DNA of 45,607 nt from Minisyncoccota bacterium. GTDB lineage: Bacteria; Patescibacteriota; Minisyncoccia; Phycocordibacterales; Zambryskibacteraceae. Position 1 is the stretch's first letter; every line of letters begins with the position of its first letter. The position numbers were made by a program, and so were the translations under genes. The DNA is taken from NCBI GenBank assembly GCA_036517475.1, contig DATDVZ010000002.1, forward strand, positions 1 to 45,607, given 5' to 3'. This document shows positions 40,537 to 41,627 of the stretch, in pieces. A model generated the notes under the pieces. That model searched no databases and was not told the DNA's origin. It saw nothing but the letters and a program-made list of their open reading frames with translations.

Positions 40537-41370
40537 ATGAAATTTAGATTCGGGCCCATAAGGTTCGGTGAAAGTACTCCAGAAGGAGGAGTAGCTGTAA
40601 CTTCGCAGCCGAGTCCAAAAGTTGAACAAAGTCCAAGATTAAGATCTCCAATTTCCAGCCCCAAAGAGGAAGTTTTAGAGTCTAGAGAAACCAGTTCTGA
40701 GAGAAAAATTGGCCATGGAGTAACTGATTCTTCTTTTATTGAATTAGTTGATGATGGTAAGGCAGTATTTAAAACGATTGATTATAAAGCAGAAAGAGCC
40801 GCTTATCTGGTTGATTTGTTTTTAGGTTTGAAGTTAGTTCCCCCTACTGTAATTCGAAAAGTAAATAATCGGGAAGGTAGTGCTCAAGAATTTATACCTG
40901 ATTCAACAGTTGGTGGAGAGTGCTCGATGCATGAGTTGTCTCTCTGTCAAGAAAAACTTATGAAATTGTGGGTTTTTGATCTTATTATAGGAAATAAAGA
41001 CAGGCATAATGGAAACTTTCTTTTAAAAGATGGAGAAGTTTATGCAATTGATAATGGAAGAAGTTTTGGATACAGATCGTACACAGGAAATTTTCGTAGA
41101 AAAATTATTCTGAATCCGGACTATAGAAACAGATCGGTAGGAGATAGTCATGTAACTTTTTTTGGTCAAGATTTACCACAAAATCTAATAGATCTCTTAA
41201 AAAGTTTTTCAGAAAATGTTAAAGAACAAGAAATTCTTCAAGATTTATTAGGCGAGATGGTGGGCAGAGAAGTTGCAAGAAGTGTAATAAGAAGAATAAA
41301 AACAATATCAACTCTTTTAACTAAAAAAGGACTTATACCTGACAAAAATTCTATAAGATTAAAATCATGA
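40537..41370 (+). CDS. type II phosphatidylinositol 4-kinase-like (PI3/PI4-kinase fold) protein with S/P-rich disordered N-terminus
   Basis: FDLIIGNKDRHNGNFLLK (catalytic loop) and YAIDNGRSFG parallel LDYIIxNTDRGNDNWLIK and AAIDNGLAFP of eukaryotic PI4KII. Upstream, GVTDSSFIELVDDGKAVFKT resembles the G-loop region. Confidence 0.6.
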   Translation: MKFRFGPIRFGESTPEGGVAVTSQPSPKVEQSPRLRSPISSPKEEVLESRETSSERKIGHGVTDSSFIELVDDGKAVFKTIDYKAERAAYLVDLFLGLKLVPPTVIRKVNNREGSAQEFIPDSTVGGECSMHELSLCQEKLMKLWVFDLIIGNKDRHNGNFLLKDGEVYAIDNGRSFGYRSYTGNFRRKIILNPDYRNRSVGDSHVTFFGQDLPQNLIDLLKSFSENVKEQEILQDLLGEMVGREVARSVIRRIKTISTLLTKKGLIPDKNSIRLKS

Positions 41371-41627
41371 AAACAGTTAAAATTTATAAGCTTCAAAATG
41401 ACGGAAGCCAGAAAGAGATCATGGTCTGTAAACTTATTGACAATGAAGTTGTCTGCGAGGGAGATAAGATTTTTGTAGAGAATCTGAAAAAATCAGGAAT
41501 CAAAGATTACAGCGACCAGGGTGGGGACACAATGCTTAAACCTGAAGACGGTTTAAAATTTCTCCAAAACCTCAAATTTGCCTTCCGTTCCGACTACCTA
41601 AATGCCACAGATATAATAGAGGAATAA
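41367..41627 (+). CDS. hypothetical small protein, translationally coupled (ATGA overlap) to the kinase-like gene
   Basis: 4-nt overlap with the upstream stop. 86 aa, acidic. Confidence 0.5.
   Translation: MKTVKIYKLQNDGSQKEIMVCKLIDNEVVCEGDKIFVENLKKSGIKDYSDQGGDTMLKPEDGLKFLQNLKFAFRSDYLNATDIIEE

Follow-up and report, generated by a model that had tools for sequence, protein, structure and literature searches.

The window analysed here is a stretch of 45,607 nucleotides (nt) from a Minisyncoccota bacterium (GenBank assembly GCA_036517475.1, contig DATDVZ010000002.1), and the subject of this work is a pair of genes that it carries on the forward strand. The first open reading frame (ORF), at 40537..41370 (+), has an ATG start and encodes a 277-residue atypical protein-kinase-like protein of the clade of type II phosphatidylinositol 4-kinases (PI4KII), FAM20 and SCO1664, with a disordered Ser/Pro-rich tail at residues 1-40 and the catalytic core at residues 41-277. 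The second, at 41367..41627 (+), also starts with ATG and encodes an 86-residue protein. Stop and start overlap by 4 nt in the sequence ATGA (41367..41370, +), the junction reading AAA TCA TGA in the kinase frame and ATG AAA ACA in the +1 register, an arrangement that points to translational coupling. Both ORFs and their overlap were read exactly where a preliminary description of this DNA had placed them. The reading favoured here, with a probability of about 0.6, is that they constitute a self-contained, translationally coupled module native to Patescibacteria (the candidate phyla radiation, CPR), composed of a cytoplasmic catalytic kinase and an obligate small partner.

The kinase matches the Pfam model PI3_PI4_kinase (PF00454) above its gathering threshold (34.0 versus 27.1 bits, E 3.8e-8), in agreement with the family proposed in the preliminary description, and the match spans residues 138-184 only, from the catalytic loop to the DFG-equivalent. 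Searching 5.8 billion proteins with phmmer returned 63 homologues of about 250-290 residues, 53 of which carry the same precomputed Pfam entry. In an alignment of 53 sequences (A1), K79, E86, D148, D155, R156 and D172 are invariant, and N160 is conserved in at least 90%. The codon of Lys79, within VFK (40771..40773, +), specifies the ATP-phosphate-binding lysine, which is partnered by Glu86 and aligns to VFKP of PI4K2A/B. The catalytic-loop block D148-LIIGNK-D155-R156-HNG-N160 (40978..41016, +) matches LDYIIRNTDRGNDNWL of PI4KII and FDFLIGNMDRHH of FAM20, while I171-D172-N-G174 (41047..41058, +), which bears the metal-binding Asp of the DFG-equivalent, matches AAIDNGLAF of PI4KII. The two blocks on which the resemblance to PI4KII had first been based, DLIIGNKDRHNGNFLLK (residues 148-164) and YAIDNGRSFG (residues 169-178), are present together with the upstream ones, and the profile alignment to structures of the Protein Data Bank (PDB) pairs them with PI4KII as VFKP, E..AYLVD..L..VP.T, GS.Q.F, D.II.N.DR..N.L.K and AIDNG..F. 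Because the full set of residues for ATP binding and phosphotransfer is present, the protein is predicted to be an enzyme and not a pseudokinase.

The relation to particular kinase families depends on how the search is made. With the kinase alone as query, phmmer against the PDB retrieved FAM20 and phosphoinositide 3-kinase (PI3K) and missed PI4KII; in the large protein database it reached bacterial SCO1664-like proteins at 25-31% identity (P0059-P0063). Of the curated bacterial families, TIGR03843 (SCO1664) matches best (E 1.7e-14), yet its 53.8 bits are far from the 172.4 that this model requires, and the score against Pfam Fam20C (PF06702), 20.9 bits, also falls short of its gathering value of 26.8. 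A profile of the whole family, a broader set that includes SCO1664-like sequences, ranked PI4K2B first in the PDB (1e-16), followed by PI4K2A and FAM20A (6e-15 each), whereas a profile made only from Patescibacteria placed FAM20A (1e-11) ahead of PI4K2A/B (2e-9). Judged by such comparisons, the kinase appears to be about equally distant from PI4KII and FAM20, with bacterial proteins as its nearest relatives. Matches to HipA models of Pfam and NCBIfam were insignificant.

In the AlphaFold2 model, the kinase has a predicted local distance difference test score (pLDDT) of 86.5, falling to 40-66 over residues 1-40. Ser and Pro make up 31% of the N-terminal 45 residues, a disordered stretch as the preliminary description had supposed, and the N-terminus is hydrophilic. 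Neither a signal peptide nor a membrane segment was detected in the kinase, whose highest Kyte-Doolittle mean over 19 residues, 1.55, lies inside the kinase core. Compared with solved structures, the model is closest in fold to PI4KIIα (scores of 19.2 and 18.7, at 24% identity), followed by FAM20 kinases (13.6-16.7), CtkA (13.8), actin-fragmin kinase (12.1) and CotH (11.4), with HipA, MavQ and PI3K at about 10. An unrelated kinase fold of the HipA or APH type, the alternative named in the preliminary description, does not apply, since PI4KIIα is the closest fold. The segment equivalent to the activation loop (residues ~176-214) is poorly modelled, variable and neither basic nor hydrophobic.

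These features bear on the possibility that the protein is a eukaryote-type phosphatidylinositol 4-kinase, acting as a lipid-modifying effector together with the product of the adjacent gene, which resembles major vault protein (MVP), in an episymbiont-host interaction. In PI4KIIα, a Cys-rich insert of the N-lobe, CCPCC, is palmitoylated and anchors the enzyme to membranes. This motif is absent from the window kinase, in which six residues separate K79 from E86 and only two Cys occur in total (129 and 137), and so are a conserved basic/hydrophobic membrane-binding loop and the signal peptide. In addition, FAM20 protein kinases are as close or closer, the identity to PI4KII is low and a single-sequence search does not find it, and the family is broad in Patescibacteria, with housekeeping neighbours. 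What stood of the earlier label "eukaryotic PI4KII-like" is therefore the fold and the motifs; the word "eukaryotic" did not hold, as FAM20 is equally close, the nearest relatives are bacterial and the GC content is native. The effector proposal is quite improbable, and the evidence on its side, which comes from the MVP gene, is given below.

The small protein belongs to a family of its own. A first search gave 14 homologues with identities of 49-99%, and a profile search of 1.84 billion representatives extended the family to 236 clusters at 50% identity, nearly all of them stand-alone proteins of 80-90 residues. Among 153 representatives, the most conserved positions are G32, G44, P59, D61, G62, F65, L66, L69, Y77 and A80, which yield the motif P59-x-D61-G62-xx-F65-L66-xx-L69 ... 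Y77-L-x-A80. The protein has an α/β fold, and no relatives were detected in Pfam, the PDB or BFVD. Neither the partner family nor the two-gene module has an entry in Pfam or NCBIfam, and no description of them was found in the literature. The small-protein family is thus previously undescribed, while the kinase adds a new branch to a superfamily already known and is tagged PF00454 in databases.

The association of the two genes was followed across loci gathered by exact homologue look-up and by scanning a single genome for each GTDB species with an alignment of 18 closer kinase sequences. The scan gave 19 loci, all but two labelled as Patescibacteria (Saccharibacteria, Minisyncoccia, Staskawiczbacteria, Daviesbacteria, Azambacteria, Yanofskybacteria, Harrisonbacteria, Paceibacter and Parcubacteria); the two remaining ones come from a "Gammaproteobacteria" metagenome-assembled genome (MAG) with 43% GC and from an unclassified MAG. 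According to hidden Markov model (HMM) scans and blast clustering, the small gene lies directly downstream of the kinase, on the same strand, at 23 of 24 non-redundant loci, namely 22 across Patescibacteria lineages and one high-GC contig, so the coupled small ORF of the preliminary description is real. The distance from the kinase stop to the small-gene start ranges from -14 to +34 nt over 25 loci, and the 4-nt overlap seen in the window occurs in eight. With the module defined as a small-family gene that is next downstream on the same strand at a gap of at most 34 nt, the window holds one, at -4 nt. No other neighbour of the pair recurs, the maximum for any family being three loci in the blast clustering of the non-redundant set, and the flanks differ by lineage, including ATP synthase, the EF-Tu/S10 operon, RNase III and an M50 peptidase. 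The many Patescibacteria lineages, a GC content within the range of the window (34.3% for the kinase, 38.2% for the window), the lack of export signals and the housekeeping flanks are the reasons to regard the module as native and cytoplasmic.

As to how the module may work, the kinase would be the catalytic subunit, cytoplasmic and, by its sequence, catalytically competent, and the small protein its adaptor or regulator, the two forming a complex. The mean column identity of the partner is 60-63%, compared with 44% for the close kinases. The small protein is expected to serve in regulation or targeting and not as an inhibitor, because it shows the higher conservation of the two and because, downstream of a kinase, it occurs in fusion with a second enzyme. 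That fusion stands outside the Patescibacteria chromosomes. Fusions to other sequence occur in a few proteins of the small family (P0207, P0204 and P0211), and in P0207 the small domain is followed by a linker and an ADP-ribosyltransferase (ART) exoenzyme toxin domain. On a Logan contig with 61% GC (L011:1681-6134, SRR28494067; also L012), P0207 follows, with a 4-nt overlap, a 1107-residue protein whose C-terminal 230 residues are a full-length kinase homologue (hhalign probability 99.6%, E 8e-25). This arrangement is present on 20 contigs, and the contig carries one phage-family gene, P22 Y8K6-like. On a second high-GC contig (L033), the kinase is likewise followed, after a 4-nt overlap, by P0204, which consists of the small domain and a 340-residue extension of unknown nature.

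The same observations are relevant to a different explanation, in which the pair is a toxin-antitoxin or toxin-immunity system: growth would be arrested by the kinase, a toxin of the HipA/HipT kind or else domesticated cargo of phages or polymorphic toxins, and the small protein would neutralise it, as HipS does HipT. A small downstream gene with a stop-start overlap is typical of toxin-immunity pairs, the genomic flanks vary among genomes, and among the phage relatives of the kinase is MuF-fused cargo, an architecture known for polymorphic toxins (Jamet et al. 2017, PMC5576092). However, the small protein varies less than the kinase, and its members from deep lineages make up one coherent family, unlike fast-evolving immunity or antitoxin proteins, and a single copy was detected in the window. 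Moreover, an immunity protein would have little reason to be attached to a toxin, so the joining of the small domain to an ART toxin domain in P0207 favours a shared docking or targeting domain. The insignificant HipA matches also count against a toxin, as does PADLOC, in which the kinase gave only weak PDC-M03A matches at the catalytic loop and no membership of a defence system. Thus, a toxin pair is rather improbable, and the small protein is better read as the regulatory or targeting partner of the kinase.

Relatives of the kinase also occur in viral sequences of IMG/VR. One of them (L037:3612-5804) encodes a MuF-like minor head protein (phrog_4611, 1e-26) that ends in the kinase domain; in another (L038:3039-5549), a 255-residue kinase comes directly after the portal gene. 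In a third (L036:14-5989), the kinase comes after an Alt-like ART and a NUDIX-containing protein of 1145 residues, and next to it, with an ATGA overlap, stands a downstream ORF of 99 residues. This ORF matches the small-family HMM weakly (E 3e-4), and it was the only trace of the small protein in IMG/VR, where pattern and tblastn searches returned none. The phage kinase domain corresponds to phrog_3162, annotated as "unknown function". These architectures are those of host-takeover proteins that are packaged in the capsid and injected; for kinases and ARTs that phages deliver to modify proteins, polyvalent proteins offer a precedent (Iyer et al. 2017, PMC5512222). From here, one may speculate that the 86-residue protein is a portable targeting subunit, which directs the kinase in trans and the ART in cis toward one conserved cellular target, and that the pair is of the effector type and was kept, or domesticated from phages, to alter a central process, for instance translation or transcription, in the cell itself or in its host bacterium. 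This idea is put forward with little weight.

Regarding the substrate, a protein is given slightly better than even odds, by analogy with related kinases. Proteins are the substrates of most characterised members of the structural neighbourhood (FAM20C, CtkA, actin-fragmin kinase, CotH and HipA), the phage relatives travel with ARTs, and the segment equivalent to the activation loop is neither conserved nor basic/hydrophobic; for these reasons a protein is preferred over phosphatidylinositol. A small molecule or glycan is unlikely as the substrate, and a lipid is less likely still. The broader explanation of a small-molecule or glycan kinase, comparable to the xylose kinase FAM20B or to aminoglycoside/choline-type kinases, would place the enzyme in a metabolic or envelope pathway with the small protein as carrier or specificity factor. 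The operon of an SCO1664/TIGR03843 protein with a histidine phosphatase and DUF3090 (L009) suggests a phospho-metabolite cycle and speaks for it, yet no metabolic neighbour recurs beside the Patescibacteria pair, the phage relatives co-occur with protein-modifying ARTs, and the characterised structural neighbours are mostly protein kinases. The small partner was also considered as a relative of DUF3090 and this was ruled out (hhalign probability 0.3%). A metabolic kinase is accordingly a doubtful reading, and the module of a kinase, probably acting on protein, with its targeting or regulatory subunit is retained.

The neighbour on which the effector proposal relied is the MVP-like gene at 41731..44253 (+), which has a GTG start and encodes 840 residues with the Pfam domains MVP_shoulder (4.4e-23) and Vault_3 (3.2e-9) and a weak Band_7. 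It begins 103 nt after the small ORF, and in that spacer no convincing terminator was found, the fold being no better than that of shuffled sequences (z 0.27); a terminator-like site lies at 44269-44288, after the MVP gene. The adjacency is repeated in an independent assembly of a 99%-identical strain with the same gene order (L035), so it is not an assembly artefact, and the occurrence in two assemblies without a clear terminator in between is what favours an effector formed with MVP. Against this, none of the 23 other non-redundant loci has MVP in its flanks, and the functional link to MVP drawn in the preliminary description was not borne out. Its effector role fared no better, considering the missing signal peptide and membrane segment and the housekeeping flanks elsewhere. 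The adjacency is a lineage-specific accident of gene order, outside the conserved module.

Concerning composition, no other of the 38 main ORFs, a set made up of the small ORF and all those encoding 120 residues or more, reaches the GC of the MVP gene, 48.6% (z 2.6). The contrast with the kinase was correctly reported in the preliminary description, but the conclusion drawn from it, that the two genes were acquired at different times, is weak, because the MVP excess is mainly at codon position 1 (0.64) and GC at the third position (GC3, 0.39) is like that of the small ORF (0.40). A recent horizontal acquisition of MVP was likewise considered from GC and found unconvincing, GC3 being just 1.5 standard deviations above the window mean. 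Bacterial MVP homologues were reported earlier from Myxococcales, Cytophagales and Oscillatoriales only (bioRxiv 10.1101/872010); the MVP-like gene described here sits in an apparent Patescibacteria chromosome and may deserve a separate study.

Several observations weigh against the interpretation as a native kinase module with an obligate partner. The partner is missing at one Patescibacteria locus (L029, Candidatus Harrisonbacteria MHJJ01000013.1, 2848-4173), and the fusion P0211 (L032) carries the partner domain with no adjacent kinase. The order of an enzyme gene followed by a small gene is the classic layout of toxin-immunity pairs too. As far as the predicted model indicates, the nearest solved structure to the kinase is a lipid kinase, and the type of substrate is unreadable from the activation-loop-equivalent segment, given its poor modelling and variability. 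In the window itself, the lack of a terminator before MVP means that the three genes may be co-transcribed here by read-through.

At the locus without a partner (L029), the kinase has 316 residues and is followed by an unrelated Cys-rich ORF of 95 residues and then by an MraZ-like gene.

In the window, the upstream neighbour of the kinase is a YbaK/tRNA_edit gene, separated from it by a 93-nt spacer with a minimum free energy of -24.5 kcal/mol in strand folding (z = -4.06), none of 200 shuffles being as stable. The spacer contains a strong hairpin with a 14-bp stem (40455..40493, +), which is likely the terminator of the YbaK/tRNA_edit gene, and for this reason a separate transcription unit probably begins with the kinase pair. 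A promoter-like site, TTGAAA-16-TAACAT (40503..40530, +), is a weak consensus match (9/12) that ends 6 nt before the kinase ATG; promoter-like sites are no more numerous in the region than in shuffled sequences, and the match is suggestive only. A smaller second hairpin, at 40499-40520, overlaps the beginning of this site.

The remainder of the window is an ordinary bacterial chromosome, with aminoacyl-tRNA synthetases, FtsK, dCTP deaminase, an M16 peptidase and an AI-2E transporter. Two further genes stand out in it. Two genes upstream of the pair, an 884-residue protein (36813-39467, +) has an N-terminus that resembles a signal peptide, together with a right-handed β-helix region and a lipase domain of the LCAT/PGAP1 type, and may act as a phospholipase or acyltransferase that is secreted or located at the surface. 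At 14863-18375 (+), a class I aminoacyl-tRNA synthetase of 1170 residues (tRNA-synt_1, E 7.6e-118; Anticodon_1) has a His_Phos_1 domain (residues 522-685, E 7.6e-27) inserted between the halves of its catalytic domain, an unusual insertion located at or near the usual position of the editing domain.

Patescibacteria have tiny genomes and few characterised signalling proteins, and the module is a candidate, open to testing, for a mechanism of regulation or interaction shared across the lineage. The pairing in phage and phage-like sequences links it to injected host-takeover enzymes and hints at the role of the partner. Together with SCO1664, the kinase family makes up a compact prokaryotic branch, suggesting that the "eukaryotic" PI4KII and FAM20 kinases have bacterial relatives, while the account of a eukaryote-derived lipid kinase beside a vault protein is left unsupported.

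Among known systems, the SCO1664 family (TIGR03843), of actinobacterial/Chloroflexi-type PI3/PI4-kinase-like proteins, has a similar size, about 250 residues, and the same invariant residues. The locus of a distant SCO1664-type homologue (L009:3694-5774, GCA_034431435.1) is organised as an operon of His_Phos_1, DUF3090 and kinase with no small partner, whereas no such DUF3090/His_Phos_1 operon recurs at the Patescibacteria pair, whose neighbours in the window are YbaK and MVP. None of the three genes of that operon has a characterised function, the proteins that accompany the kinase there show no relation to the 86-residue protein, and no informative literature was found on the function of SCO1664. 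Compared with HipBST/HipA, the gene order is opposite, the small gene of the window being downstream, no HipB-like DNA-binding gene is present at the pair, and the partner family is highly conserved and also fused to an ART domain. The phage MuF and polyvalent effectors (PMC5512222 and PMC5576092) resemble the kinase relatives in the three IMG/VR sequences; the window kinase differs in being a stand-alone chromosomal gene among housekeeping genes, with no MuF or delivery domain, and the kinase type of polyvalent proteins (PMC5512222) lacks the C-terminal subdomain and is of a different lineage.

FAM20A, FAM20B and FAM20C (PDB 5wrr, 5yh3, 5yh0, 4kqa and 5xom) are secretory, while the window kinase has neither a signal peptide nor disulfide-rich secretory features, and its partner is an unrelated 86-residue protein instead of a paralogous pseudokinase. 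Finally, the likeness to PI4KII (PI4K2A/PI4K2B; PDB 4pla, 4hnd and 4wtv) is one of fold and motifs: the PI4KII core has about 350-380 residues, compared with about 235 in the window kinase, which does without the CCPCC insert between the Lys and the αC Glu and which is a cytoplasmic protein of bacteria, encoded next to the gene of a small partner.

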